A DNA stretch of 64,000 bases, from contig JAUYPI010000018.1 of the NCBI GenBank assembly GCA_030697645.1, positions 10,457-74,456 of the forward strand, in the 5' to 3' direction. Below, piece after piece: positions 3,140 to 61,484 of this stretch (its first letter is position 1; each line of letters starts with the position of its first letter). A program made the translations under genes and the position numbers. Under the pieces are notes generated by a model. The model was not told where the DNA came from. It saw only the letters and a list, made by a program, of their open reading frames with translations, and ran no database searches. Origin of the DNA: a bacterium. GTDB taxonomy: Bacteria > Patescibacteriota > Minisyncoccia > Phycocordibacterales > VMGT01.

Positions 3140-3384
3140 TACACAATGTTTACACAATTTCCAATTTCTAACTTCTGATTTTTGAGTACGGACTTACCTC
3201 AATTCGAAATCAGAAATTAAAAATCCGAAGTTGCGTTAGCAAAATTCGAATTTGCGTCAGCGGTTTGCACAATTTTCAATTTTCAAGGGCCCAATTTTCA
3301 AACACGACCGTCGTCGTTATTGAGTCATTGACACATTAAAAATTGATTGAAAATTGCAAAATTGAAAATTGGAAATTAAGTGAT
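3140..3384. repeat. Composite palindromic heptad-repeat region: a degenerate arm at 3140-3262 plus a canonical A-type palindrome at 3271-3377
   Basis: AATTTTCAATTTTCAA...CAAACACGACCGTCGTCG...ATTGAGTCATTGACACATT...GAAAATTGCAAAATTGAAAATT. It sits between two minus-strand sugar-nucleotide genes. Confidence 0.8.
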
Positions 3385-4158
3385 TTAGGCATTGACGACA
3401 TCACTGCGTCCGGAGAAAAGCGAAGCGCGCACATTTGAGACTGTCCGGAGCTGCTCTGGCGTGTTGACGCCGAGGACTTCTTCGGGGAGCGCGGCGGGCA
3501 GGGCGAGAATAGAGCGGCCGCGCCCGGTGAGCACGCGCACGGCGTCAGTGAGATAATACTCGCCGTTTGCGCTGTTCGGCCGGAGGTTTTTGAGCGCAGA
3601 AAAGAGCGCTCGCGCACGATAGCAGTAGGCGCCCGCGTTGATCTCGCGGATCTCTCGCTCCTCCTCAGTCGCGCTTTTCTCTTCTTCAATCCGCACAACG
3701 CGGCCCGAGGCGTTCCGGACGATGCGGCCGTAGCCGGTTGGATTATCGAGGAGGGCGGTAAGAAGTGCTCCTGTCGCGCGTGCCTTTCGGTGCGCGACAA
3801 AAAGGCGCGCGAGGGTCTCGGAGCGGATAAGCGGCGTATCGCCGTAGCGGATGAGGACGTCACCGTCAAATCCTTTGAGGAGGCTCTCGGTAATGGAGAC
3901 CGCATGCCCAGTGCCGCGCTGTTCCTCCTGTCTTATAAACTCAATAGGAAGCTCCGAGTACGCACGCACGGCCCCGGCGACTGCCTCGGCCCGATAGCCG
4001 ACGACGAGAATGACGCGCTGGGGTGCGAGCGGCACAATGGCTTCGAGCACATGCGCGATCAATGGCTTGCCATCGAGTTCGTGGCAGACTTTCGGGATGT
4101 CGCCACCCATACGGGTACCTTTACCCGCCGCAAGGATTATTACTGCAAGGGAGCGCAT
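3385..4158 (-). CDS. sugar-phosphate nucleotidyltransferase (GlmU N-terminal uridyltransferase-domain-like), with no acetyltransferase LbH domain
   Basis: LAAGKGTRM nucleotide-binding motif near the N-terminus. The length fits a single NTP-transferase domain. The start is taken at the Met preceding the motif. Confidence 0.7.
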   Translation of the reverse strand: MRSLAVIILAAGKGTRMGGDIPKVCHELDGKPLIAHVLEAIVPLAPQRVILVVGYRAEAVAGAVRAYSELPIEFIRQEEQRGTGHAVSITESLLKGFDGDVLIRYGDTPLIRSETLARLFVAHRKARATGALLTALLDNPTGYGRIVRNASGRVVRIEEEKSATEEEREIREINAGAYCYRARALFSALKNLRPNSANGEYYLTDAVRVLTGRGRSILALPAALPEEVLGVNTPEQLRTVSNVRASLFSGRSDVVNA

Positions 4159-4436: not shown

Positions 4437-5300
4437 ATGTTCGTCGGCTTTAAGAAAAATATTCGCTCCTACGCACTCGTGGCGCTTTTTGCCGTGACCG
4501 TCTTTGTCTGGTACGCCGCGCTCCGCGAGGAGCGCGGCGGCGTGCTCTCCGTGGCATTCCTCGACGTAGGGCAGGGCGACGCGGCCCTGATTGAGAGCCC
4601 GACTGGCCGCCAGGTGCTCATTGACGGCGGGCCGGGGAGGAGCGTGCTCCGCGCCTTGGGGCGCACTATGCCTTTCTTCGACCGCTCGATTGACGTCGTA
4701 ATTGCAACGCACCCAGACCAGGACCACATCGGCGGGCTGCCGGAGGTGCTTGCGCGCTATCGCGTTTCGCATATCCTCGAGCCGGGCGTCGCTGCGGACA
4801 CGGCCGTGTACGGTGCGTTTGCAGAGAGCGTCCGAATCGAGGGTGCGGAACACATACTCGCACGGCGCGGGCAGAAAATCGAGCTTGGCGGCGGGGCGTA
4901 CCTCGACATTCTCTTCCCGGACCGCGACGCAGGCGGCCTCGAGACGAATACCGCCTCTGTCGTTCTAAAGCTCACCTATGGCGCGACCTCATTCCTCCTC
5001 ACCGGCGACTCGCCGAAGCAAATCGAGGAATACCTCGCGGCGCTCGACGGCGAAGCGCTCGACGTTGACGTCCTAAAGGCCGGGCACCATGGCTCGAAGA
5101 CGTCGACGTCAGACTACCTCCTCGGCCTTGCCTCGCCTGCCTATGCCGTGATCTCGGCCGGGCATGACAACCGCTACGGCCATCCGCACCGGGAGGTGCT
5201 CGACGCACTGGCACGTTTCGGAGTCAAGCCCCTCGGCACGTATGAGCGAGGCACCATCATTTTTGAGAGCGACGGCAGGGAGGTGCGGCTGAAGAAATAG
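4437..5300 (+). CDS. ComEC/Rec2-family metallo-beta-lactamase domain protein (competence-related), with a single N-terminal TM
   Basis: VAFLDVGQGDAALIE, HPDQDHIGG and KAGHHGSKTSTS motifs match the ComEC C-terminal MBL domain. The ORF-track start at 4419 lies inside the terminal repeat of the upstream element, so the next ATG is used. Confidence 0.8.
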   Translation: MFVGFKKNIRSYALVALFAVTVFVWYAALREERGGVLSVAFLDVGQGDAALIESPTGRQVLIDGGPGRSVLRALGRTMPFFDRSIDVVIATHPDQDHIGGLPEVLARYRVSHILEPGVAADTAVYGAFAESVRIEGAEHILARRGQKIELGGGAYLDILFPDRDAGGLETNTASVVLKLTYGATSFLLTGDSPKQIEEYLAALDGEALDVDVLKAGHHGSKTSTSDYLLGLASPAYAVISAGHDNRYGHPHREVLDALARFGVKPLGTYERGTIIFESDGREVRLKK

Positions 5301-20130: not shown

Positions 20131-20243
20131 CCCCCCTACGTTTGGCGTAGGGGGTTTCGTCGTGGCTGCCCGCCAGGCTTGTGCACAGACCGCAAAGATT
20201 ATCGCGCGGGTTGTTTGGTATACTGTGTGTAAATATAGGATTG

Positions 20244-20372
20244 AATTTTCAATTTCTAATTTTCAATCAATTTTCAATTATTCAATTTTCAAACACGAAC
20301 GGCGCGCCACCGTCATTGGATCATTGTAACATTGAAAATTTATTGGAAATTGAAAATTGTAAATTGAAAATT
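20244..20372. repeat. Palindromic heptad-repeat element, A-type, ending 4 nt before the pilB ATG
   Basis: AATTTTCAATTTCTAATTTTCAATCAATTTTCAATTATTCAATTTTCAAACACGAACGGCGCGCCACCGTCATTGGATCATTGTAACATTGAAAATTTATTGGAAATTGAAAATTGTAAATTGAAAATT. Confidence 0.85.
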
Positions 20373-20376
20373 TTGT

Positions 20377-22143
20377 ATGCACATAGAGGACCCCCAGCTC
20401 ATTGAATTCATCGAAGACGCCGGGCTTGTCTCGCGTGCCGATCTCGACCGAGCGAAGACAGAGGCGACGAAAAAGAAAACACCCCTCGGCGACTTTCTGG
20501 TGACCGATGGCAAGATTACCGCGGATGACTTACGTCGCATCGAGGCCTATATTCTCGGCATACCCTTTGTAAGCTTGCATGACCAACCGCTTGACCAAGC
20601 GACGCTCGCCCTCGTGCCCGAGCCCATCGCACGCACGCACAATATCGTCGCGTTCCGCAAAGACGGCGAGACGCTCGAGGTTGCGATGCTCGACGTCGAA
20701 GACCTCGGAGCTATTGATTTCGTGAAGAAGAAGACCGGTCTCAAAATCCTGCCGCGCCTCACCGACAGCGTTTCGATCAAGGACGCGCTCAAGCTCTATC
20801 AGCGCGGGCTCCATGAGGAATTTGGGGAGCTTATTAAAACCGACACCGCCGCGCTGCCGGACATTAAAGCCGCCGCGGAGGATATAGGCGGGGGCGGCGA
20901 GCCGAAAAGCGAGGCAGACCTCAAGAAGCTCGCGGAGGATCTGCCGGTTATAAGAATTGTCGACACGCTCCTTAAGCACGCCGTGCTCCAAAATGCCTCG
21001 GACATCCACATCGAGCCGATGGAAAATCAGGTTCTCGTGCGCTATCGGATTGACGGCCTGCTTCGCGACGCGATGGTGCTCCCGCGGCACGCGGCGGAGA
21101 GCATTACGGCGCGTATCAAGGTGCTCGCGCAGCTGAAGCTCGACGAGAAGCGCCTGCCGCAGGACGGGCGCTTTAAGGTGGAGTCCGAGAGCGAGCGGGT
21201 GGCGATCCGCGTCTCGATCCTACCCACCTACTTTGGCGAGAAGACGGTGATGCGTCTCCTCAGAGAGAGCGTTCAGGGATACACACTCGAGGGGCTTGGC
21301 TTTCACGGTGCGGCGCTTGAGCAGGTGCACCATGCGCTCACCAAGACGACCGGGATGGTTCTCACCACAGGCCCCACTGGATCAGGTAAAACCACGACGC
21401 TCTATACCATGCTCGACATCCTAAATACTCCGGGCGTCAACATTTCGACCATTGAAGACCCGATCGAGTACCAGATGGCGCGCGTCAACCAAACGCAGGT
21501 TCGCCCCGAGATCGGGCTTACCTTTGCCTCGGGGTTGCGCACCCTCGTGCGGCAGGACCCAGACATCGTGATGGTCGGCGAGATACGCGACACTGAGACC
21601 GCAGGGCTTGCGATCAATGCCGCGCTTACCGGCCACCTCGTGCTCTCGACCTTGCACACAAACTCCGCTGCGGGCGCGATGCCGCGCTTGATTGATATGA
21701 AGGCCGAGCCGTTCCTTCTCGTTTCGACTCTCAACGTGGTGATCGCACAGCGGCTCGTGCGCCGCATCGGCAAAGAGCGGGAGAAACTATCCCTCACGAA
21801 GAACGACCTCGCGTCGCTCGAGAAGCACGTTAATCTCGATCGCATTCAGAAGCAGCTTGAGGAGGAGAGTGTGATACCGGAAGGCACGAAGTTCGACAAA
21901 ATCGCGTTCTACCGGCCGAAGCACCCCGATGCGCTGGAAGGTTATCAGGGACGTGCGGGCATTTACGAGGTGCTGGTCGTCACGCCGGCGATTAAAGAGC
22001 TCGTGATGCGCGGCGTCCCTTCCGATGAGATCGCGGCTCGTGCGCGGGCGGATGGGATGCTCACCATGTTTGAGGACGGGATCTTCAAAGCGGCGCAGGG
22101 GATAACGACGATAGAAGAGGTGCTCAGGGTAATATCAGAGTAG
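20377..22143 (+). CDS. pilB: type IV pilus assembly ATPase PilB (GspE family)
   Basis: N-terminal GspII domain, Walker A TGPTGSGKTTTLY, Asp box and His box of secretion ATPases. Confidence 0.9.
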   Translation: MHIEDPQLIEFIEDAGLVSRADLDRAKTEATKKKTPLGDFLVTDGKITADDLRRIEAYILGIPFVSLHDQPLDQATLALVPEPIARTHNIVAFRKDGETLEVAMLDVEDLGAIDFVKKKTGLKILPRLTDSVSIKDALKLYQRGLHEEFGELIKTDTAALPDIKAAAEDIGGGGEPKSEADLKKLAEDLPVIRIVDTLLKHAVLQNASDIHIEPMENQVLVRYRIDGLLRDAMVLPRHAAESITARIKVLAQLKLDEKRLPQDGRFKVESESERVAIRVSILPTYFGEKTVMRLLRESVQGYTLEGLGFHGAALEQVHHALTKTTGMVLTTGPTGSGKTTTLYTMLDILNTPGVNISTIEDPIEYQMARVNQTQVRPEIGLTFASGLRTLVRQDPDIVMVGEIRDTETAGLAINAALTGHLVLSTLHTNSAAGAMPRLIDMKAEPFLLVSTLNVVIAQRLVRRIGKEREKLSLTKNDLASLEKHVNLDRIQKQLEEESVIPEGTKFDKIAFYRPKHPDALEGYQGRAGIYEVLVVTPAIKELVMRGVPSDEIAARARADGMLTMFEDGIFKAAQGITTIEEVLRVISE

Positions 22144-22145
22144 GC

Positions 22146-22265
22146 AAATTTTCAATTTTCAATTTTGCAATTTTCAATCAATTTTGCAATGACTCAATTT
22201 TCAAACACGAACGACGTCGTCGTCATTGAGACGTTGAAAATTTATTGAAAATTGAAAATTGAGAA
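22146..22265. repeat. Palindromic heptad-repeat element, A-type, between pilB and pilC
   Basis: AAATTTTCAATTTTCAATTTTGCAATTTTCAATCAATTTTGCAATGACTCAATTTTCAAACACGAACGACGTCGTCGTCATTGAGACGTTGAAAATTTATTGAAAATTGAAAATTGAGAATTGGAAATTG. Confidence 0.85.
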
Positions 22266-22283
22266 TTGGAAATTGCGATAGCT

Positions 22284-23513
22284 ATGCCTTCCTTCACCTA
22301 CAAGGCCAAAAAAACCGACGGTGCCGAATACGACGGCACCTTCGACGGCGTTGATCGCTTCGCGCTCTTTCACCATATCCGCGAGGAGGGCGGCACGGTG
22401 GTCTCGTTTGAGGAGAAAGGAGGAGAGAAACGCCGTGCGTTCCATGTGAACCTCGAGTCGATTAACGCGTTTTTGAGCCGGGTCAGAGAGCACGATAAAA
22501 TTTCTCTCGCGAGGAACCTCGGCGCGATGCTATCCGCCGGGCTCTCCGTCTCCCGCGCGCTCGAGATTCTCGATCGCCAGATGCGGCACCCAGCGCTCCG
22601 GAGAGTCTTCGGGCACCTCCAGGGCTCAATCAGCGCCGGCAAAACGCTCCATGAGGGGCTCTCCGCGTTTCCGCGCGTGTTCCCGCCGCTTTTTATCGCG
22701 ATGGTGCGGGCAGGGGAGGAGAGCGGCGGGCTCGCACAGGCGCTCGCGCTCATTTCGACCCAGATGGAACAAACGTATCTTCTCAAAAAACGTATTCGCG
22801 GCGCAATGATGTACCCGACGATCGTCCTCTGCGCCATGGTAGCGGTTGGCGCGGCAATGATGGTCTATGTGGTGCCGACCCTCTCGGACACCTTTCGCGA
22901 ACTCAAGGTAGAACTTCCCACGAGTACGCGCATCATCATCGGCATTAGCGATTTTATGAAAGCGCACTATCTGCTTGCGTTTGGTGGAGCCGTAGCGGCA
23001 ATCGTGGGCTTTTTCGCGCTCCTCCGCACGCGTCTTGGTCGCCGCGCCAAGGAGATCGTCCTACTCTATACCCCGATCATTCGCCCCTTGGTCCAGGAGA
23101 CGAATGCCGCGCGCGTCGCCCGCACGCTCTCCTCGCTCCTCTCTGCCGGCGTGGCGATTACCCACGCCTTTGAGATTACTGCCGACGTGGTGCAGCACAG
23201 CTCATTTCGCGCCGTGCTCGTCGAGGCCGAGGGGCGAATTCAGAAAGGGACGTCGATTGCGGATGTGTTCCGCGCCGCCGAACATCTTTATCCGCCGTTC
23301 GTCTCCGAGATGATCGCGGTTGGCGAGGAGACAGGCGATCTCTCCGCAATGCTTGTGCGCGTCGCTGATTTCTACGAGGAGGAAGTATCGCGCAAGACCA
23401 AGGACATGTCAACGGTCATCGAACCGTTTCTTATGGTGACGATCGGCGCCGGCGTCGGCTTCTTTGCCGTGTCCATGATCCAGCCCATTTATTCGTTATC
23501 GTCGGCAATTTAG
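22284..23513 (+). CDS. pilC: type IV pilus inner-membrane platform protein PilC (GspF family)
   Basis: Two GspF repeats with conserved motifs (LSRNLGAMLSAGLS / LSSLLSAGVAI) and three TM segments. Confidence 0.9.
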   Translation: MPSFTYKAKKTDGAEYDGTFDGVDRFALFHHIREEGGTVVSFEEKGGEKRRAFHVNLESINAFLSRVREHDKISLARNLGAMLSAGLSVSRALEILDRQMRHPALRRVFGHLQGSISAGKTLHEGLSAFPRVFPPLFIAMVRAGEESGGLAQALALISTQMEQTYLLKKRIRGAMMYPTIVLCAMVAVGAAMMVYVVPTLSDTFRELKVELPTSTRIIIGISDFMKAHYLLAFGGAVAAIVGFFALLRTRLGRRAKEIVLLYTPIIRPLVQETNAARVARTLSSLLSAGVAITHAFEITADVVQHSSFRAVLVEAEGRIQKGTSIADVFRAAEHLYPPFVSEMIAVGEETGDLSAMLVRVADFYEEEVSRKTKDMSTVIEPFLMVTIGAGVGFFAVSMIQPIYSLSSAI

Positions 23514-23539
23514 GTTTGTATAGCGCAAAGTGCTGCTAG

Positions 23540-23657
23540 AATTTTCAATTTACAATTTTCAATTTTCATTAAATTTTCAATTCCTCAATTTTCAAACACG
23601 AACGACGCCGCCGGCATTGAATCATTGACACATTGAAAATTGCAAAATTGAAAATTT
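23540..23657. repeat. Palindromic heptad-repeat element, A-type
   Basis: GAATTTTCAATTTACAATTTTCAATTTTCATTAAATTTTCAATTCCTCAATTTTCAAACACGAACGACGCCGCCGGCATTGAATCATTGACACATTGAAAATTGCAAAATTGAAAATTT. Confidence 0.85.
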
Positions 23658-23714
23658 AAGATACGGCGAGCACTTTGGTTTTGGCATGTGATATTAGTGC
23701 GACTACCAGTATTT

Positions 23715-24161: not shown

Positions 24162-24190
24162 CGAAATGGCCAAGGCAGCTGGTCGGGCCG

Positions 24191-24308
24191 AATTTTCAAT
24201 TTACAATTTTCAATCAATTTTCAATTACCCAATTCTCAAACACGACGCCGTCCGTAATTGAGTCATTGAAACATTGAAAATTTATTGAAAATTGAGAATT
24301 GGAAATTT
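24191..24308. repeat. Palindromic heptad-repeat element, A-type
   Basis: AATTTTCAATTTACAATTTTCAATCAATTTTCAATTACCCAATTCTCAAACACGACGCCGTCCGTAATTGAGTCATTGAAACATTGAAAATTTATTGAAAATTGAGAATTGGAAATTT. Confidence 0.85.
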
Positions 24309-24318
24309 AATTGCGGTT

Positions 24319-25365
24319 ATGTTGCTTACTACCAAGCCACCACGGGGCTTCAGCCTCGTTGAGGTCGTCGTCGGTTCCGCCATCATTCTCATCGTGCTCG
24401 GCGGGCTTATTGCCGCGTTCACTCGCTACGCAGCGACGCTTTTCCGCACTACCGATCGGGTACAAGCAACGTATCTTGCCGAGGAGGGGATTGAAGTGGC
24501 GCGTATCCTCCGCGACGCGAGCTGGACCAGCTTTGCCGCGCTCACGCTCGATACGCCGTACCGGCTCGCGCTCTCAAGCGGCGTGTGGGAGGCGACGACA
24601 AGCGAGGCGCTCATTGATGGCGCGTTTGATCGCACGATGACGCTTCAGAGCGTGTATCGGCGGACGAGCGATAGTGATATCGTTGCGTCAACCTCGCTCG
24701 CGAGCAAGGCGATCGACCCCGACGCGCGGTACGTTTTAGTGCGCCTCAGCTGGAGCCCGCTGCCGTTCTCCGAGGCCTCTGCGGAGGCATTTGAGGCAGG
24801 CTCCACAGACGGGGATCTTGGGGGCTTTCCGTCAAATAACGGCGGCAATGGCGACATCGCGCAGGGTTTCACCGTGCCTGCCGGGAGCGACATCGTGGTG
24901 CCGCGCGTGGAGCTTTATCTGCGTCGTGTAACCGCCGCACCATCTGATTTGTACCTTGAAATCCGAAGCGGCTCGACGGTAGGGCCCGTCGTTGCGACGT
25001 CCGCGACGCTTGATGGCGCGTCCCTGCCTGCGACACTGTTGTGGACTTCATTTACTTTTCCGACACGGCCGACGCTCACCGGGGGCGTTCTCTACCACCT
25101 GCGCCTTCGGAGTGATCCCGATTCGACCGTCGCATTTTCCGGTTCGATCGGAACGATTCATTGGGGCTATCTACAGGCTGACCCGAGCCCCTACGGAGGC
25201 GGCATCGCGCGACGATACGTTGGACGTCTTGGGAATCCACTGGACGAAGGTCAGGCGCTCGATCAGTACGACTTTTCGTTTCGTGTCTACAAGGAAGTGC
25301 CGGGCGGTTTTGCTGAGGCAATCGAGTACACGACACACCTTGTGAATTTGTTTGAGACACCGTAG
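24319..25365 (+). CDS. prepilin-like minor pilin (large pseudopilin)
   Basis: PRGFSLVEVVVGSAIILIVLGGLIA prepilin leader with Glu+5. 350 aa, Gly/Ser/Thr-rich C-terminal domain. Confidence 0.75.
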   Translation: MLLTTKPPRGFSLVEVVVGSAIILIVLGGLIAAFTRYAATLFRTTDRVQATYLAEEGIEVARILRDASWTSFAALTLDTPYRLALSSGVWEATTSEALIDGAFDRTMTLQSVYRRTSDSDIVASTSLASKAIDPDARYVLVRLSWSPLPFSEASAEAFEAGSTDGDLGGFPSNNGGNGDIAQGFTVPAGSDIVVPRVELYLRRVTAAPSDLYLEIRSGSTVGPVVATSATLDGASLPATLLWTSFTFPTRPTLTGGVLYHLRLRSDPDSTVAFSGSIGTIHWGYLQADPSPYGGGIARRYVGRLGNPLDEGQALDQYDFSFRVYKEVPGGFAEAIEYTTHLVNLFETP

Positions 25366-25367
25366 GC

Positions 25368-25660
25368 GAAATTTTCAATTTTCAATTTTGCAATTTTCAA
25401 TAAATTTTCAATGAATCAATTTTCAAACACGTAACCACTCACCTTCGTACACAACCGCGTAACAAAGCCGTCATTGCGAGGAGCAAGATCCCTTCGCTTC
25501 GCTCGGGACAGGCTCCGCAATTCAGAGTCAGTACGTAAAACCCCTGGATTGCTTCGCTCCTTTTAGTCGCTCGCAAAGACGGGCGTGAGTGATTACTCAA
25601 ACACGAACGGTGCCGTGGTCATTGAGACATTGAACCATTGAAAATTGCAAATTGAAAATT
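25368..25660. repeat. Palindromic heptad-repeat element, A-type, split by a nested 165-bp insertion
   Basis: The left arm ends ...CAATTTTCAAACACG at 25431 and the repeat resumes TCAAACACGAACGGTGCCGTGGTCATTGAGACATTGAACCATTGAAAATTGCAAATTGAAAATT at 25596, directly abutting the ATG at 25661. Confidence 0.85.
25431..25595. mobile_element. MITE-like insertion with 12-bp terminal inverted repeats (GTAACCACTCAC / GTGAGTGATTAC, one mismatch) and an 8-bp target-site duplication (TCAAACAC)
   Basis: Inverted-repeat ends and duplicated TCAAACAC on both flanks read directly from the sequence. The insertion interrupts an otherwise typical palindromic repeat at its core. Confidence 0.7.
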
Positions 25661-26191
25661 ATGCGAGATTTCCAACATCCAAAACTCGGTCAGACATTGA
25701 TTGAACTACTCGTCTATGCTGCGCTCGTGGTCATCATTGGCGGTATCGTGACGACGATGCTTGTCGCGATGCAGCGCGCGATTGCGCAGACGCTTGTTGC
25801 GCGCCGCGTTCAGGCGACGGCCGCAGTGGTACTTGAGCGCATCGTGCGCGACGCGCGAGTGGCCCATGACATTGACGAGCTCGCGAGTACGCTTGGCGTG
25901 CATCCCGGGCGTGTGACCCTGCTCGTTCGTGATGAGGGCGGCGGGCCGGATGTCGCGTACGCCTTCGAGGCGGTAGCGTCAGCGCTCGAAGTGCGGCGCA
26001 ACGGCGTGCTTGAAGGATCCCTGACGCCCGACACCGTTTCGGTTGCGAATCTTGTTTTTCGGGAAGTCGTAACGCCGGTGTCGGAGGCGCTCCGCATCGA
26101 GCTCACGCTGCATGCGGAGCAGGGGCGGGCGTCGAGTACGGAGAAATTTTATGTAACTACCGTTTTGCGGGATTCGTATCAGTTGGAGTAA
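25661..26191 (+). CDS. prepilin-like minor pilin
   Basis: KLGQTLIELLVYAALVVIIGGI N-terminal hydrophobic helix with Glu+5 after a short leader. Confidence 0.7.
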   Translation: MRDFQHPKLGQTLIELLVYAALVVIIGGIVTTMLVAMQRAIAQTLVARRVQATAAVVLERIVRDARVAHDIDELASTLGVHPGRVTLLVRDEGGGPDVAYAFEAVASALEVRRNGVLEGSLTPDTVSVANLVFREVVTPVSEALRIELTLHAEQGRASSTEKFYVTTVLRDSYQLE

Positions 26192-26213
26192 TCGTATGTC
26201 TTCGTGTGTGAAA

Positions 26214-26327
26214 AAATTTTTAATTATCAATTTTGCAATTTTCAATCAATTTTCAATTACCCAATTTTCAAACACGACGCCGTCGTCATTGAGTCATTGA
26301 AACATTGAAAATTGTAAATTGAAAATT
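26214..26327. repeat. Palindromic heptad-repeat element, A-type, abutting the ATG at 26328
   Basis: AATTATCAATTTTGCAATTTTCAATCAATTTTCAATTACCCAATTTTCAAACACGACGCCGTCGTCATTGAGTCATTGAAACATTGAAAATTGTAAATTGAAAATT. Confidence 0.85.
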
Positions 26328-27617
26328 ATGACATACCTGCAATCTCAAAACCGCGGCGCCGCTCTCACTCTCGCCGTTCTGATGCTCACCGCCGCCATGA
26401 TTCTCGTCGTCGGCGGCGTGATGTTCCCTGCGCTTCACGCGATCCGCTCCGCGCACGAGTTCACGCGCTCCGAGGACAGTTTTTTTCATGCTGAAGGATT
26501 GCTTGAGGACGTGCTCTATCGGATGCGCGAAGACGTCGACGTGGATACGCTCGAGGTTTTCTCGGAGAGCGGCCGCGTCGCCACCGCAACGGTAACAGCA
26601 GTGGGGACGCTCCAGGAGATCGTCTCACGTGGTGAGCGACTGCGCTCAGTGCGTAAGGTGCGCGCGCTTCTTGATATCGGCAGCGGTGGCGCGGTGTTTA
26701 ACTTCGGCATTCAAGCAGGCGATGGCGGTGTTGATCTCGATAACAACGCGAGCGTTATAGGCAATGTCTATTCAAATGGTCCAATAGTAGGCGAAGGCCT
26801 CAACGACATTACGGGCTCAGCCGTTTCAGCGAGTACAACGGGGCTTATAGACGACATTCATACCGGAGCGGATGCGTTCGCACACATGATCAAAGATTCC
26901 CTCGTTGACGGCGATGCCTACTATCAGATCATAACCGGCACGACTGTCACCGGCACGCCTTTCGATGAGAGTCCGGATCAAGCGACGAGCACGCTCCCCA
27001 TAAGTGACGCGATGGTAGCAGACTGGGAGGCGGACGCTGTCTTGGGCGGCACACTCGTGTGCAATAGCGGATCAGAGCATAAAATTACAAGCGATACGAC
27101 ACTTGGCCCGGTAAAAATTCCCTGCGATCTTGAGATTTCCGGCAATACGACGATCACACTTCGCGGCGTGGTGTGGGTCGAGGGAGATATGAATGTTCAG
27201 AATAATTCTATTATCCGCGTCGATCCTTCTTTGGGCGCGAAGAGCGTGCCAATTATCGCTGACAAGCCGTCGAGTCCTCTCACCAAAGGAAAGGTGATAC
27301 TGCAAAACCACGCCACGTTCCAAGGATCTGGAGTGGGTAACTCATATGTATTAGTCCTCTCGCAGCATGCTTCGAGCGGTTGTGGGGGCACACCGGCGAT
27401 TGATGCCAAAAATTTTGCGACCGGCGACCTCCTCGTCTACGCTGGCCATGGTGAGGTATTGATTGAGGACAACATTAATCTCAAAGAAGTGACCGCAAAC
27501 TGCGTGCACGCAAAGAACAGTGCTCAGGTTGTCTACGAAGGCGGACTTGCAACGCTCCTTTTTGTTACCGGCCCCAGCGGCGGCTATATCATCTCAAGCT
27601 GGCGGGAGGAGGAGTAG
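26328..27617 (+). CDS. large pilus-associated protein with an N-terminal pilin-like TM helix (PilX/PilY-like minor pilin or tip-adhesin candidate)
   Basis: N-terminal GAALTLAVLMLTAAMILVV helix, then a 400-aa Gly/Thr/Asn-rich domain. It is the last gene of the pilin gene series. Confidence 0.55.
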   Translation: MTYLQSQNRGAALTLAVLMLTAAMILVVGGVMFPALHAIRSAHEFTRSEDSFFHAEGLLEDVLYRMREDVDVDTLEVFSESGRVATATVTAVGTLQEIVSRGERLRSVRKVRALLDIGSGGAVFNFGIQAGDGGVDLDNNASVIGNVYSNGPIVGEGLNDITGSAVSASTTGLIDDIHTGADAFAHMIKDSLVDGDAYYQIITGTTVTGTPFDESPDQATSTLPISDAMVADWEADAVLGGTLVCNSGSEHKITSDTTLGPVKIPCDLEISGNTTITLRGVVWVEGDMNVQNNSIIRVDPSLGAKSVPIIADKPSSPLTKGKVILQNHATFQGSGVGNSYVLVLSQHASSGCGGTPAIDAKNFATGDLLVYAGHGEVLIEDNINLKEVTANCVHAKNSAQVVYEGGLATLLFVTGPSGGYIISSWREEE

Positions 27618-28469: not shown

Positions 28470-28493
28470 TCCTCAATCATCAGGCGTTGTCAG

Positions 28494-28625
28494 AATTTTC
28501 AATGCTCAATTTTCAATTTTCAATCAATTTTCAATTACTCAATTTTCAAACACGACGCAGCCCGTCTTTGAATCATTGGGACATTGAAAATTTATTGGAA
28601 ATTGGAAATTGGAAATTGGAAATTT
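28494..28625. repeat. Palindromic heptad-repeat element, hybrid: A-type left arm and B-type right arm (GGAAATTGGAAATTGGAAATT)
   Basis: GAATTTTCAATGCTCAATTTTCAATTTTCAATCAATTTTCAATTACTCAATTTTCAAACACGACGCAGCCCGTCTTTGAATCATTGGGACATTGAAAATTTATTGGAAATTGGAAATTGGAAATTGGAAATTT. Confidence 0.85.
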
Positions 28626-29784
28626 AGACCGTGCACATATTCCGAGCATTCGAGACGCTGCCAATCTTCGAGGCAAGCGGATAGTGCTGCGCCTGGACTT
28701 GAATGTCCCTCTGACTCCGCAAGGCGAGGTGGCGGACGATTTTCGTATTCGCAAGGTGTTGCCGACGCTCGCGCTGCTCGGTGAGCGGGGAGCACTGGTG
28801 CGCGCCGTGAGCCACATTGACGGTGCGGGGGGGTCGCTGCGCGCGGTTGCGGACTATATGGTTCGGCATCTTGGCGTCGCGCTCACATTTGTGCCGGAAA
28901 TGGCGCACCCGCAAGCTGCACTCGTACTCGAGCGCCAGAGTCCGCGCGAGATTGTGCTTTTTGAAAACATCCGCCGCGAGCCCGGGGAAGAGCGTAATGA
29001 CCCGGCGTTTGCCGAGCGTCTCGCTGGCCTCGGGGATGTATATGTCAACGACGCGTTCTCCGTGTCGCATCGCCCCCACGCCTCGATTGTCGGCGTGCCA
29101 AAACTCCTTCCATCCTATACGGGGCTCCAGTTTACTGATGAAATCGAACACCTCTCGCAGGCCTTTGACCCGCCGCGCCCGTTTATCTTTATCATCGGCG
29201 GCATTAAATTTTCGACGAAGTTGCCTCTCGTGCGTAAGTTCCTCGATATCGCCGATGCCGTGTTTGTCGGCGGCGCGCTTGCAAACGACATTTTCCGGGC
29301 GCGCGGGCTCTCGGTGGGGAAATCGGTTGTTTCAGAGGAAGCGCTTGATCTATCTGGCATCGTTAATCACCCAAAACTCCTCACGCCCTCGGACGTCCGG
29401 GTGCGTCCGGCGGATGATCCGCGCGAAGAGGCAGCGCACCTCGCGCGGCCGGAGAATGTCAGCGCCGACGAGATTATTATGGACGCGGGGCCAGCGACAC
29501 TTGAGGCGCTTCGCGAGAGCATCGGCTCGGCAGCGTTCATTGTCTGGAATGGCCCCCTTGGCGATTACGAACATGATTTCGAGGAGGGGACCGAGGCGCT
29601 TGCGGCTTTGATCGCTGCGGCACTCGGGCGCTCGGTCGTTGGCGGCGGCGATACCATTGCCGCGATCAGTCGCCTCAAACTTGAAGCAAAGTTCACCTTT
29701 GTCTCCACCGGCGGTGGCGCGATGCTCGACTTTCTCGCCGATAGCATGCTGCCGGGTCTTGAGGCGTTGATGGCGCGTGTGTGA
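28609..29784 (+). CDS. pgk: phosphoglycerate kinase. The true start is probably GTG at 28631; the first codons of the ORF are translated repeat
   Basis: KRIVLRLDLNVP N-terminal motif, hinge and C-terminal GGGDT / TGGGA nucleotide-binding motifs. Confidence 0.9.
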   Translation: MEIGNLDRAHIPSIRDAANLRGKRIVLRLDLNVPLTPQGEVADDFRIRKVLPTLALLGERGALVRAVSHIDGAGGSLRAVADYMVRHLGVALTFVPEMAHPQAALVLERQSPREIVLFENIRREPGEERNDPAFAERLAGLGDVYVNDAFSVSHRPHASIVGVPKLLPSYTGLQFTDEIEHLSQAFDPPRPFIFIIGGIKFSTKLPLVRKFLDIADAVFVGGALANDIFRARGLSVGKSVVSEEALDLSGIVNHPKLLTPSDVRVRPADDPREEAAHLARPENVSADEIIMDAGPATLEALRESIGSAAFIVWNGPLGDYEHDFEEGTEALAALIAAALGRSVVGGGDTIAAISRLKLEAKFTFVSTGGGAMLDFLADSMLPGLEALMARV

Positions 29785-32163: not shown

Positions 32164-32199
32164 CCAGCACCACTTTTACGCTTGTAAAAGTGGTGCTGG
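32164..32199 (+). terminator. Perfect 16-bp hairpin between smpB and the tmRNA 5' end
   Basis: CCAGCACCACTTTTAC-GCTTG-GTAAAAGTGGTGCTGG. Its 3' arm runs directly into the GGGGATG acceptor of ssrA. Confidence 0.5.
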
Positions 32200-32609
32200 G
32201 GATGATTGGTCTTGACAAAAGAATACGCCCGTGAGGTGCGCAGGAGTGCTCCGACATCACTTAAAAAGGCCGGAACCAATACGTGCCAAGAACACTCTTG
32301 CACGAGCAAAGTCTATTCTTTCTCCCTATTTTGGGGTAAGCGACTTTGCTCTCGCATACGCCTAAAGCCGCGTCAGCGGTTTTCACGTCTGCGACGCTTG
32401 TTCTCTTTGACGCCCGATAAGACCGAACGAGTGTAATAAAAATTCGGACTGGAGCGCCGCGTGTCCCGCGCAGCGCTCAAGATTCTAGGGACGGCACGCT
32501 CGGTGAGATTTTGCTTGTTTCTCACTCGCCAGTGTATAAAAACAAGCTACCCTGCGTAGATGCCTCAGAGCAATTCTTTTGCACCCGGGTTCGACTCCCG
32601 GCATCTCCA
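32198..32609 (+). ncRNA. ssrA: tmRNA (transfer-messenger RNA)
   Basis: 5' GGGGATGATTGGTCTTGAC (tRNA-like domain acceptor and D-analogue), 3' GGGTTCGACTCCCGGCATCTCCA (T-arm and acceptor), with a G3.U70 wobble as in tRNA-Ala. It follows smpB. A candidate tag reading frame is GCAAAG...GCCTAA at 32306-32365. CCA is not encoded. Confidence 0.85.
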
Positions 32610-32712
32610 CTCGACTCGCCCCTCCTCGCGGAGGGGCGCGCTCGTAACGCTCGTAAAAAAACGAGGCGTTAAAAACAGCATACGTAAGTTACCCTGTCTT
32701 TTTGATGAACTT
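32605..32712 (+). repeat. Direct repeat copy 1 (about 107 bp): the last few nt of ssrA plus the downstream terminator region
   Basis: CTCCACTCGACTCGCCCCTCCTCGCGGAGGGGCGCGCTCGTAACGCTCGTAAAAAAACGAGGCGTTAAAAACAGCATACGTAAGTTACCCTGTCTTTTTGATGAACTT is duplicated with one SNP at 34183-34289. Confidence 0.85.
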
Positions 32713-32930: not shown

Positions 32931-33707
32931 GTGCCTAAGCTGGAGTGTGCATTGTTCGATGGCGGCGCCTGGAGCTTCATACTCCCGATTGCAGTGGTGT
33001 TGGGATGTATTCTAGTATTGTTCCTCCATACTATGCGCCGCTCACGGCGCGGAGAAGCCATATCGTTAAGTGAGTGGCTACCAACTCCTCCAACGGGTCC
33101 AGATTCACAGTCGCCCACGACATGGCTAATCTATGGGCTGAGTGTCGTGAGTAGAGTCCTCCCGCTAGCAACGTTCTCGAAAGTATTTTCACTGCGCTGG
33201 CATATCGTTGTGCACGACGCGTATTTTGCGTTCTGGGTCGCGCTTGCATTGGCAACGCTACTATGGCCTCAGTATGTGGATTTACCGTTGCCGCTCTTCA
33301 TACTTCGGATAGGCGAGCACCTCACCGTATTTCTATATGAACTGATATACATTAGCGGTTTGCCGGCAAATCTGCGCCGACAAGTCCGATTCTCAATCGT
33401 GTATCGTATGCTCTTTGAAGAGATCCAGATCTTTTTCACGGTGGTGATATACGCCGCCGCGATCTATCGCGCATATGCGCCGTATATCGGGCTCGAAACA
33501 AGTTCCTCCCCGGCATGGGACGCGCTCTACGTGAGCATCGTAACCATAAGTACGCTCGGGTTTGGTGACCACGTGCCTCGTGACTGTCTTCGGTTGGTTG
33601 TCATGGCTGAAGTCCTCGTGGGTATGTTCATCGTGATTATCGGCATCGCTCGCTTGGTCGGTAAGATTACCGGATATATGGGCAACCATGACCAGACGAC
33701 AGCATAA
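32931..33707 (+). CDS. potassium-channel-like membrane protein, encoded in an islet bracketed by ssrA 3'-end repeats
   Basis: Multi-TM protein with a pore signature VTISTLGFGDHVP (TxGFGD selectivity-filter-like) near the C-terminal TM pair. The flanking leader is AT-rich. Confidence 0.6.
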   Translation: MPKLECALFDGGAWSFILPIAVVLGCILVLFLHTMRRSRRGEAISLSEWLPTPPTGPDSQSPTTWLIYGLSVVSRVLPLATFSKVFSLRWHIVVHDAYFAFWVALALATLLWPQYVDLPLPLFILRIGEHLTVFLYELIYISGLPANLRRQVRFSIVYRMLFEEIQIFFTVVIYAAAIYRAYAPYIGLETSSSPAWDALYVSIVTISTLGFGDHVPRDCLRLVVMAEVLVGMFIVIIGIARLVGKITGYMGNHDQTTA

Positions 33708-59393: not shown

Positions 59394-59487
59394 GATGTGC
59401 AGGACGCAAGGCCTGAAAGCCGATGTTCCCAAATAATCAATAAGCAAGATATAAAAAGTTCAAATGCCAAAATCGAAATGTCAACGA

Positions 59488-59612
59488 AATTTTCAATTTT
59501 GCAATTTTCAATCAATTTTGCAATGACACAATTTTCAAACACGACGTCGTCCGTCATTGAGCATTGAAACATTGAAAATTCATTGAAAATTGCAAAATTG
59601 AAAATTGTAAAT
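59488..59612. repeat. Palindromic heptad-repeat element, A-type, upstream of the pilO-like gene
   Basis: AAATTTTCAATTTTGCAATTTTCAATCAATTTTGCAATGACACAATTTTCAAACACGACGTCGTCCGTCATTGAGCATTGAAACATTGAAAATTCATTGAAAATTGCAAAATTGAAAATTGTAAATT. Confidence 0.85.
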
Positions 59613-59708
59613 TCTTGGACTTGATTTGACATTTGGCATTAATGCACGGTCACATTTTTGGTGTTTGGCGACTTGTATATTTGCTATTTTGATTTGTACT
59701 TTGTATCC

Positions 59709-60851: not shown

Positions 60852-60923
60852 CCCCTCGTAGCTCAATGGACAGAGCCGCGGACTTCTAAGCCGCTGATGG
60901 GGGTTCGATTCCCTCCGAGGGGA
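60852..60923 (+). tRNA. tRNA-Arg (anticodon TCT)
   Basis: Acceptor CCCCTCG/CGAGGGG, D-arm GCTCAATGGACAGAGC, anticodon loop CTTCTAA, T-arm GGGGGTTCGATTCCCTC. No CCA. Confidence 0.8.
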
Positions 60924-60969
60924 TAGAAAGGTTTTGCGAAGAAGGAGCGGCCAAAAAAACTCAGCTGCC

Positions 60970-61046
60970 GGACGATTAGCTCAGTTGGCTAGAGCGCTGC
61001 TTTTACACAGCAGAGGCCGGAGGTTCGAGCCCTCCATCGTCCACCA
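60970..61046 (+). tRNA. tRNA-Val (anticodon TAC), CCA encoded
   Basis: Acceptor GGACGAT/ATCGTCC, anticodon stem-loop CTGCT-TTTACAC-AGCAG, T-arm GGAGGTTCGAGCCCTCC, ACCA. Confidence 0.85.
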
Positions 61047-61198
61047 GAATTTTTAAGTGCGGTTAATTGCTTGCGTGAAAACACGCACACTGTGGTGAGT
61101 TCTGGCCCGCAGCGACGCAATCGCTGCAGGGCTTTTCTTTTTGTGTTTTTCTTGATAGAAATTGGATAGGACGTGCCGCTGTTTTGAAAGTCAAACAC

Positions 61199-61380
61199 GC
61201 ACCCTTAGCTCAGCTGGCTAGAGCGTTCGTTCATCCCGTTAGAAAGCGTGGGCACTTAGCTCAGTTGGTAGAGCGTTCCCTTCACACGGGAGAGGCCACA
61301 GGTTCGAGTCCTGTAGTGCCCATTGCTTTCTAACGGGACGAGCACGCGAGAGGCCGTAGGTTCGAGTCCTACAGGGTGCA
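61199..61380 (+). tRNA. Split tRNA-like gene (182 nt): canonical acceptor, D- and T-arms, but the anticodon region is occupied by a 13-bp helix bearing a complete tRNA. The anticodon cannot be assigned
   Basis: 5' GCACCCT-TA-GCTCAGCTGGCTAGAGC and 3' GTAGGTTCGAGTCCTAC-AGGGTGC-A form a perfect acceptor and T-arm. Between them lie TTCGTTCAT-CCCGTTAGAAAGC-GT-[tRNA-Val]-TT-GCTTTCTAACGGG-ACGAGCACGCGAG. Confidence 0.6.
61250..61322 (+). tRNA. tRNA-Val (anticodon CAC), nested inside the split tRNA-like gene
   Basis: Acceptor GGGCACT/AGTGCCC, D-arm GCTCAGTTGGTAGAGC, anticodon stem-loop TTCCC-TTCACAC-GGGAG, variable AGGCC, T-arm ACAGGTTCGAGTCCTGT, discriminator A. Confidence 0.85.
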
Positions 61381-61413
61381 TCGAAACGCTACACAAGCTG
61401 CGCGAAATACTTC

Positions 61414-61484
61414 GGGCTCATAGTAAAGTGGTATTACGCGGCATTCGCATTGCCGAGTCCCGGGTTCGATTCCCGGTGAGTCCA
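61414..61484 (+). tRNA. tRNA-Ala (anticodon CGC), G3.U70 present
   Basis: Acceptor GGGCTCA/TGAGTCC with a G3.U70 wobble, D-arm GTAAAGTGGTATTAC, anticodon stem-loop CGGCA-TTCGCAT-TGCCG, T-arm CCGGGTTCGATTCCCGG. Confidence 0.8.

Follow-up and report, generated by a model that had tools for sequence, protein, structure and literature searches.

The stretch of DNA analyzed here (64 kb, hereafter "the window"), from an uncultured bacterium of the ultrasmall type, includes a type IV pilus gene cluster. The neighborhood codes for T2SSE, T2SSF and several N_methyl prepilin-like proteins, followed by TIM and PGK. The region of interest lies between a gene for a 348-aa protein and a gene for a 176-aa prepilin-like protein (Table 1). 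Homologs of the 348-aa protein include one in a Parcubacteria MAG. The window also contains a tmRNA gene at 32198-32612, downstream of smpB (Rfam, 90.9 bits; tag peptide AKNTLARAKSILSPYFGVSDFALAYA), and nine tRNA genes, including a cluster at 60852-61484.

Many genes in the window are preceded by A+T-rich palindromic leaders, in which AATTTTCAA-type arms are arranged around the core TTTTCAAACACG. When at most one mismatch is allowed, this core occurs 14 times in the window (0.43 expected), and eight of these sites have closely similar surrounding sequence. There is also a second leader flavor with units and core of its own (Table 1). Each leader is predicted to fold into a long hairpin. As an example, the intact leader at 26205-26330 has a predicted folding energy of -28.6 kcal/mol (z = -4.1).

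The leader upstream of the 176-aa prepilin-like gene is interrupted. The first-pass annotation described this interruption as a miniature inverted-repeat transposable element (MITE) with 12-bp terminal inverted repeats (TIRs) and an 8-bp target-site duplication in the center of a palindromic leader. This is supported by the anatomy of the element, by copies found outside the window and by empty sites. The TIRs and the duplication are real, but the insert had been given as 165 bp and is 166 bp long, and the second copy of the duplication, placed at 25596-25603, was one base off. The corrected coordinates are listed in Table 1.

Table 1. Features of the interrupted leader, its neighboring genes and the related leaders in the window.
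Feature	Position	Strand	Evidence or remark
TTTTCAAACACG-type leaders	3225-3385, 20216-20376, 22128-22288, 23519-23679, 24163-24323, 26195-26355, 28473-28633, 59462-59622		approximate positions
Second leader flavor	near 511, 31596 and 57426		AAATTCCAA/TTTGGAATTT units around core TTTCCAAACACG
Upstream gene: 348-aa prepilin-type N-terminal cleavage/methylation-domain protein	24319..25365	+	ORF list; PF07963
Left arm of A+T-rich palindromic leader, AATTTTCAA-type units	25370..25422	+	inverted repeats I1-I5 pair with 25629-25660; kept in 8 window leaders
Target-site duplication, left copy, TCAAACAC	25423..25430	.	within invariant leader core TTTTCAAACACG
Insert, 166 bp	25431..25596		reading of 25000-26300 and repeat searches
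Left terminal inverted repeat GTAACCACTCAC	25431..25442	+	repeat searches
53-aa frame inside the MITE, ...SLRATKRSEAIQ...LLAMT...	25439..25600	-	mechanical ORF list; probably spurious
25-nt spacer CTTCGTACACAACCGCGTAACAAAG, left side only	25443..25467	+	comparison with L026-L058
Interior palindromic module	25468..25582	.	outer stem CCGTCATTGCGAG / CTCGCAAAGACGG (25468-25480 and 25570-25582); encloses two sub-hairpins
Right terminal inverted repeat GTGAGTGATTAC, reverse complement GTAATCACTCAC	25585..25596	+	repeat searches
Target-site duplication, right copy, TCAAACAC	25597..25604	.	inverted/direct repeat search (I24) and script
Leader apex remnant GAACGGTGCCGTGGTC and right arm of palindromic leader	25605..25660	+	ends at start codon
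Downstream gene: 176-aa prepilin-like protein, N-terminus ...GQTLIELLV	25661..26191	+	ORF list; gene call in GCA_034376905.1

The TIRs of the insert are complementary at 11 of 12 positions, and the direct repeat that flanks it is perfect. A G is found both at the start of the element and where the leader continues, so that the flanking repeat can also be read as 9 bp (TCAAACACG), counting the first G of the element. Other family members (see below) show exactly 8 bp, so that this is the right length of the duplication. The outer stem of the interior module is paired at 12 of 13 positions, and the sub-hairpins which it encloses are GGAGC...GCTCC and GCAATTCAGAG...CCTGGATTGC. The spacer is predicted to form a small hairpin, only on the minus-strand RNA. 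The minus-strand frame of 53 aa has no gene call in the NCBI record of the contig. Neither a promoter nor a terminator was predicted inside the element. No Rfam 15 family covers it at the gathering threshold; when E-values up to 10 are considered, only weak snoRNA/scaRNA models match the A+T-rich leader, two of which reach about 12-25 nt into the left end of the element. The element thus has the usual attributes of a MITE: it is short (under about 500 bp), is devoid of a transposase gene and has TIRs and a duplication of fixed length. Several copies in different contexts are also known, in the form of 30 loci with unrelated flanks, while the window contains one copy.

It might be argued that the repeats arose by chance or belong to the ancestral leader, so that no insertion ever occurred, and the single copy in the window is compatible with this. 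The configuration counted was a pair of 12-bp inverted repeats (at most one mismatch, spacing of 60-400 bp) flanked by a perfect 8-bp direct repeat. The window contains one such case, and 200 first-order Markov simulations contained none. When the interrupted leader is aligned with the seven intact paralogous leaders, a single clean gap results in all seven cases, which spans the 166-bp insert and one of the two 8-mers. The alignment is continuous up to ...TTTTCAAACACG and again from ...CATTGA. If the insert is taken out together with one TCAAACAC, ...CAATTTTCAAACACGAACGGTGCCGTGGTCATTGAGAC... is restored, in agreement with the leader at 22198. At this locus, the empty-site junction would be TTTTCAAACAC joined directly to GAACGGTGCC. 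The seven uninterrupted paralogous leaders serve as empty sites. About 20 related copies exist elsewhere, with recurring 8-bp duplications, and the element is absent from the ortholog (see below). The chance reading, which has a negligible probability, was rejected. The TIR-like 12-mer at 33070, which lacks a partner, is attributed to chance.

The insert is also present in a second assembly. The window is 99.99% identical to JAXMIX010000103.1 of the MAG GCA_034376905.1. As the same sequence is found there, it is unlikely that the insert is an artefact of one assembly, with the proviso that the two assemblies may be based on the same reads.

When public genomes and metagenomes were scanned, some 20 additional distinct copies (30 loci) that share these ends came to light, in MAGs of Patescibacteria/CPR and elsewhere. 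For the genome scan, which covered one genome per GTDB species, the right-end pattern was CTCGCAAWGACG, 0-10 nt, GTGAGTGRTTAC. It matched six loci: four in Patescibacteria MAGs (among them one named Berkelbacteria and one named Saccharibacteria), one in an Alphaproteobacterium and one in a genome labelled "bacterium". These matches were selected on the right end only, and their left ends read GTAACCACTCAC, GTAACCACTCGC, GTAGCCGGTCAC, GCAACTACTCAC and GTAATCACTTAC. The left-end pattern matched 24 metagenome loci. A 12-mer identical to GTAACCACTCAC ends the MITE copies in L027, L028 and L035-L058. The TIR-to-TIR and left-end patterns had no match in viral contigs, and a blastn comparison of the window element with plasmids and phages returned either nothing or chance-level matches. 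In the remainder of the 64-kb window, BLAST did not reveal a second copy.

The terminal repeat, proposed in the first-pass annotation as a handle for finding further copies, does recur elsewhere, and the 8-bp duplications that flank it are unrelated in sequence. A perfect duplication of 8 bp accompanies at least eight further independent insertions. Examples are CAATAAAG (L026), AGTTTTAA (L027, also L042 and L055), TTTTAATT (L046), CCAGCCGA (L050), CGTCGAAC (L052), CAAGCCGA (L053) and ACCAGGGG (L040, L057), while the 8-mer TGAAGCCG is present in three copies in L028. The copy in L036 has an 11-bp flanking repeat. Several older copies of the family have imperfect duplications (6-7 of 8 bases). 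It had also been claimed that a mobile family is active in this genome and that it targeted the repeat core. The former claim was not upheld, there being one copy and no transposase within 64 kb. As for the latter, the insertion does lie in the core, but specific targeting is not borne out, as a tolerated spot, and possibly a liking for A+T-rich DNA, may suffice. No target consensus emerged among the duplicated 8-mers, several of which are A+T-rich, both for the MITEs and for the IS elements described below.

Family members are typically 113-125 bp long, the extremes being 71 and 373 bp. The window copy owes its length to its spacer after the left TIR, which is atypical with 25 nt (0-8 nt in canonical members), and to an extra sub-hairpin. 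All 13 copies that were checked lie between ORFs. They have 47-62% G+C, compared to 36-61% G+C for the host DNA. No Rfam family was found in 13 related loci, be it at gathering or at relaxed thresholds.

Two arrangements in other loci should be mentioned. (i) In L028 (353-615), two MITEs are arranged in tandem. They share their ends, have different interiors (GTCATTCCAGAC... and GTCATTGCGAG...) and are both flanked and separated by TGAAGCCG. Going by its sequence, this arrangement would imply repeated insertion into the same 8 bp. As the ends are shared and the interiors are not, it is the ends that define the mobile unit. The duplicated 8-mers from L053 (CAAGCCGA) and L050 (CCAGCCGA) resemble that of L028. 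(ii) In L038 (4536-4700) and L051 (4826-4991), a MITE copy without right TIR abuts TTTGAAAATTGAGAACTGAAAATTCAATGAAAATTGAGAAC, which resembles the right arm of the leaders in the window. The MITE seems to be associated with this kind of leader again, in another metagenomic organism.

IS66 elements have terminal repeats of 20-30 bp which start with GTAAGCG, and 8-bp direct repeats (PMC11946415). ISDge4, from the ISBst12 group, has a single transposase of 449 aa, the TIRs GTGACTACTCAGCA / GTAACTGCTCAGCA and an 8-bp direct repeat (PMC12898284). For comparison with the MITE, 13 single-ORF IS66-like elements were measured (one from pHTA426, six from other plasmids, five from viral contigs and one from a metagenome). 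Transposases were assigned by Pfam DDE_Tnp_IS66 on record for metagenome proteins and by homology or record annotation for the others. The transposase from the Geobacillus plasmid pHTA426 matches DDE_Tnp_IS66 (E = 1.9e-64) and zf-IS66; this element has the ends GTATCTATTCAGCCC / GTAACTATTCAGCCC and the duplication GACGAGTT. The six further plasmid-encoded elements are from Bacillus, Chlorohelix, Acaryochloris, Deinococcus, Trichormus and Aeromonas.

All 13 elements begin with GTAAC or GTAAG (or GTTAC). The measured ends are GTAACTACTCAG(CT/GC), GTAACTATTCAGCC, GTAACAATTCAGCC, GTAAGGATTCAGGT and GTAAGTATTCACCG, with GTAACTACTCAG being the commonest; in the metagenome contig L082, the left end of an IS66-like element reads GTTACTGCTCAGGC. 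A perfect 8-bp duplication is found in 12 of the 13 elements. For the thirteenth, the one from a metagenome, no duplication was detected in three different flanks.

The single-ORF IS66 family (ISBst12 group; ISDge4, ISGka4-like, ISKpn15, ISAva2) thus resembles the MITE in its GTAAC/GTAAG start, in the subsequent ..(A/T)(C/T)TCA(G/C) and in the 8-bp duplication. Both ends of the MITE begin with GTAA (GTAACCACTCAC, GTAATCACTCAC). Its end shares 10 of 12 bases with the commonest IS66-like end, differing at the two remaining positions. Some MITE copies carry IS-type ends (CTGAGTAGTTAT in L044, GCGAGTAGTTAC in L046, GCAACTACTCAC in L028b). In contrast to the MITE, the single-ORF elements are 1.45-1.9 kb long and code for a DDE_Tnp_IS66 transposase. 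Their sub-terminal DNA has no similarity to the interior of the MITE, so that the link to IS66 rests on about 12 terminal bases and the length of the duplication. Because a PF03050 (DDE_Tnp_IS66) gene is lacking, the 166-bp element can only be a derivative or a client of the IS66 family, not an IS66 element itself.

With a probability of roughly 0.85, the 166-bp segment is a non-autonomous MITE which was inserted by an IS66-family transposase supplied in trans, judged from its ends and its duplication. The following course of events is proposed. The ends of the MITE would be of the type recognized by single-ORF IS66-family DDE transposases (ISBst12/ISGka4/ISDge4-like group). A transposase supplied in trans would have cut TCAAACAC in the center of the leader, upstream of the minor-pilin-like gene, with an 8-bp stagger. 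Repair of this stagger would have generated the two copies of the 8-mer. The interior, a palindromic module that pairs strongly with itself, would have been carried along as cargo. The anatomy of the element, its family, the 8-bp rule for the duplication and the agreement with IS66-like ends are shown by the sequences, while we infer which transposase acted, where it came from and when the insertion took place; parentage is assigned at the family level only.

The MITE may instead have been mobilized by another DDE family that makes 8-bp duplications, e.g., ISL3, IS1595, IS6 or IS256, which we consider improbable. Taken alone, duplications of 8 bp are not confined to IS66, and a parent element with identical ends was not found in the searches. 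However, all 13 IS66-like elements have the start described above and run ...TCAG/TCAC, as the MITE does, and the IS-type end GTAACTACTCAG/GC is present in some of the MITE copies. To our knowledge, the other families that make 8-bp duplications start with GG. A tblastn search of the 64-kb window and of a set of related loci did not reveal an IS66-type transposase, and none of the autonomous IS elements examined has ends that read exactly GTAACCACTCAC. A profile search with seven IS66-like transposases resulted in 7981 matches. Among the matches listed (120 of 7981), no IS66-like protein could be assigned to CPR. Three matches were followed up; their elements have GTAACTACTCAG-type or GTTACTGCTCAG-type ends rather than the exact end of the MITE.

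The interior of the element has a wider distribution than its ends. The first-pass annotation had correctly noted internal inverted repeats, but these are not private to the element, being part of a widespread module. The interior stems GTCATTGCGAG / CTCGCAATGAC and GAAGCAATC / GATTGCTTC occur outside the MITE family and in several phyla. The outer-stem pattern matched 24 viral contigs (L002-L025). These TIR-less GTCATTGCGAG...CTCGCAATGAC palindromes, from proteobacterial-type and other contigs, have both the outer stem and the inner one, GAAGCAATCC.../...GGATTGCTTC, in common with the window MITE, often to the base. Unlike the MITE, they have neither GTAAC ends nor an 8-bp duplication. When the Berkelbacteria copy was used in a plasmid search, 30 of 30 nt were identical in plasmids from Nostocales. 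The Nostocales half-module (L032:1400-1570; L033:1340-1470) is located inside another MITE-like element with the ends GTAAGTAGGTGGGCG. Hence, the module GTCATTGCGAG..GAAGCAATC / GATTGCTTCG..CTCGCAATGAC is found in three settings: as cargo of CPR MITEs, as TIR-less palindromes in viral contigs and in a Nostocales MITE-like element. Full-text literature searches with the module and TIR sequences returned only unrelated primers.

Palindromes without TIRs and duplications, together with strong internal hairpins, are what one might expect from an IS200/IS605 or REP/RAYT-type element that is moved by a single-strand HUH transposase. Such systems insert next to a short specific motif, make no target duplication and have no TIRs, though, while both TIRs and a duplication are present here and recur in at least nine independent insertions. 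An IS200/IS605-derived or REP-type identity was rejected on these grounds and is highly improbable.

A more far-reaching alternative is that the element is primarily a structured noncoding RNA or DNA element with a cellular or regulatory role (transcript stabilization or a protein-binding hairpin) and was only spread by transposon ends. The minus-strand RNA of the window copy is predicted to fold at -69.3 kcal/mol (z = -4.5) and the plus-strand RNA at -51.6 kcal/mol (z = -2.2). Transposition does not account for this strand asymmetry. The existence of the module without TIRs or duplications in viral contigs, and its conservation across phyla in sequence and not only in pairing, would also fit such a role. 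On the other hand, the asymmetry between minus and plus strand is inconsistent across the family, there is no Rfam match, and palindromy is typical of MITEs. One of the two elements in L028 (L028a) has the same MITE ends and a different interior, so that the ends rather than the cargo define mobility. This alternative would seem quite improbable.

The question of the module itself is separate from that of the MITE as a whole. It is tempting to speculate that GTCATTGCGAG ... GAAGCAATC / GATTGCTTCG ... CTCGCAATGAC is a selected sequence-specific element (a binding hairpin or a structured RNA) which is spread by different mobile backbones. We regard this as rather unlikely, as far as can be judged from the sequences compared. 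If true, a selected module would explain the base-for-base conservation across phyla.

The closest other locus is L059. Its upstream protein is 86% identical, the gene order is shared, and a 176-aa gene is found at the equivalent position. No trace of the MITE was detected at this orthologous locus. The intergenic positions 1857-2004, 3235-3383, 3831-4000, 5045-5282 and 5814-5950 of L059 again hold A+T-rich palindromes. These leaders are built from units that differ from those of the window (AGTCAAAAGTCAAAA / TTTTGACTTTTGAC, and AAATCCGAATATCGAA), and L059 thus does not provide a base-exact empty site. When the first-pass annotation called the MITE "nested", it assumed that the leader itself is mobile. 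This is open to doubt, as the leaders found at the corresponding positions in the ortholog are built from different units. An architecture which is kept while the sequence is turned over would argue for a function of the leader rather than for simple mobility.

At 5112-5173, L059 has an unrelated 62-nt hairpin with a perfect 15-bp stem (GCCCCGTTAGAAATA ... TATTTCTAACGGGGC), just 5' of the core TCGAAACAC. The location of this hairpin corresponds to that of the inserted MITE in the window. Leader apices may be sites where insertions repeatedly land or are tolerated.

The interrupted leader may have retained its fold. In the predicted fold of its plus-strand RNA (-92.1 kcal/mol, z = -6.0), the arms still pair around the self-folded insert, which they can do because the interior module folds on itself. 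Neither the right leader arm nor the start codon of the 176-aa prepilin-like gene is affected by the insertion. Since the arms can still pair and these parts are intact, the insertion is probably tolerated rather than adaptive. In the simplest case, it would be a tolerated event in one of the few A+T-rich noncoding spots of a genome with 54% G+C. The leader apex upstream of a type IV pilus gene thus accommodates 166 extra bases.

Correia, ERIC, MITEAba12 and MITECca01 of Cardinium are classical bacterial MITEs. They have a duplication of TA or 9 bp, in contrast to the 8 bp found here, and also differ in their ends and in the inferred parent family. MITEs in general are described as short, noncoding, TIR-flanked and intergenic; they form a long hairpin and are provided with transposase in trans (PMC9769881). 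Like its classical bacterial counterparts, the window element is short, noncoding, TIR-flanked, intergenic, hairpin-forming and dependent on a transposase supplied in trans. The papers searched contained no MITE linked to IS66, no MITEs in CPR and no mention of this sequence. A MITE family with IS66-type ends appears to be undescribed in these papers. The insertion as such is a genuine but ordinary mobile-DNA insertion and does not change any general concept. If any part should prove to be more than that, it would be the unexplained cross-phylum module.

Patescibacteria/CPR have small genomes, in which mobile DNA is usually considered to be scarce. The MITE family now documented in such genomes has an inferred parent of the IS66 type. 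Several lineages of CPR harbor this family, as does at least one alphaproteobacterial MAG, and its copies have about 50% G+C whatever the composition of the host. This constancy across hosts fits spread between lineages or, alternatively, a sequence constraint. The GTAACCACTCAC ends together with the 8-bp duplication can be used as a signature in genome annotation, which helps to explain spurious small ORFs that originate from such elements. In annotated metagenomes, pseudo-peptides that derive from the module are likely to give rise to spurious "hypothetical proteins".
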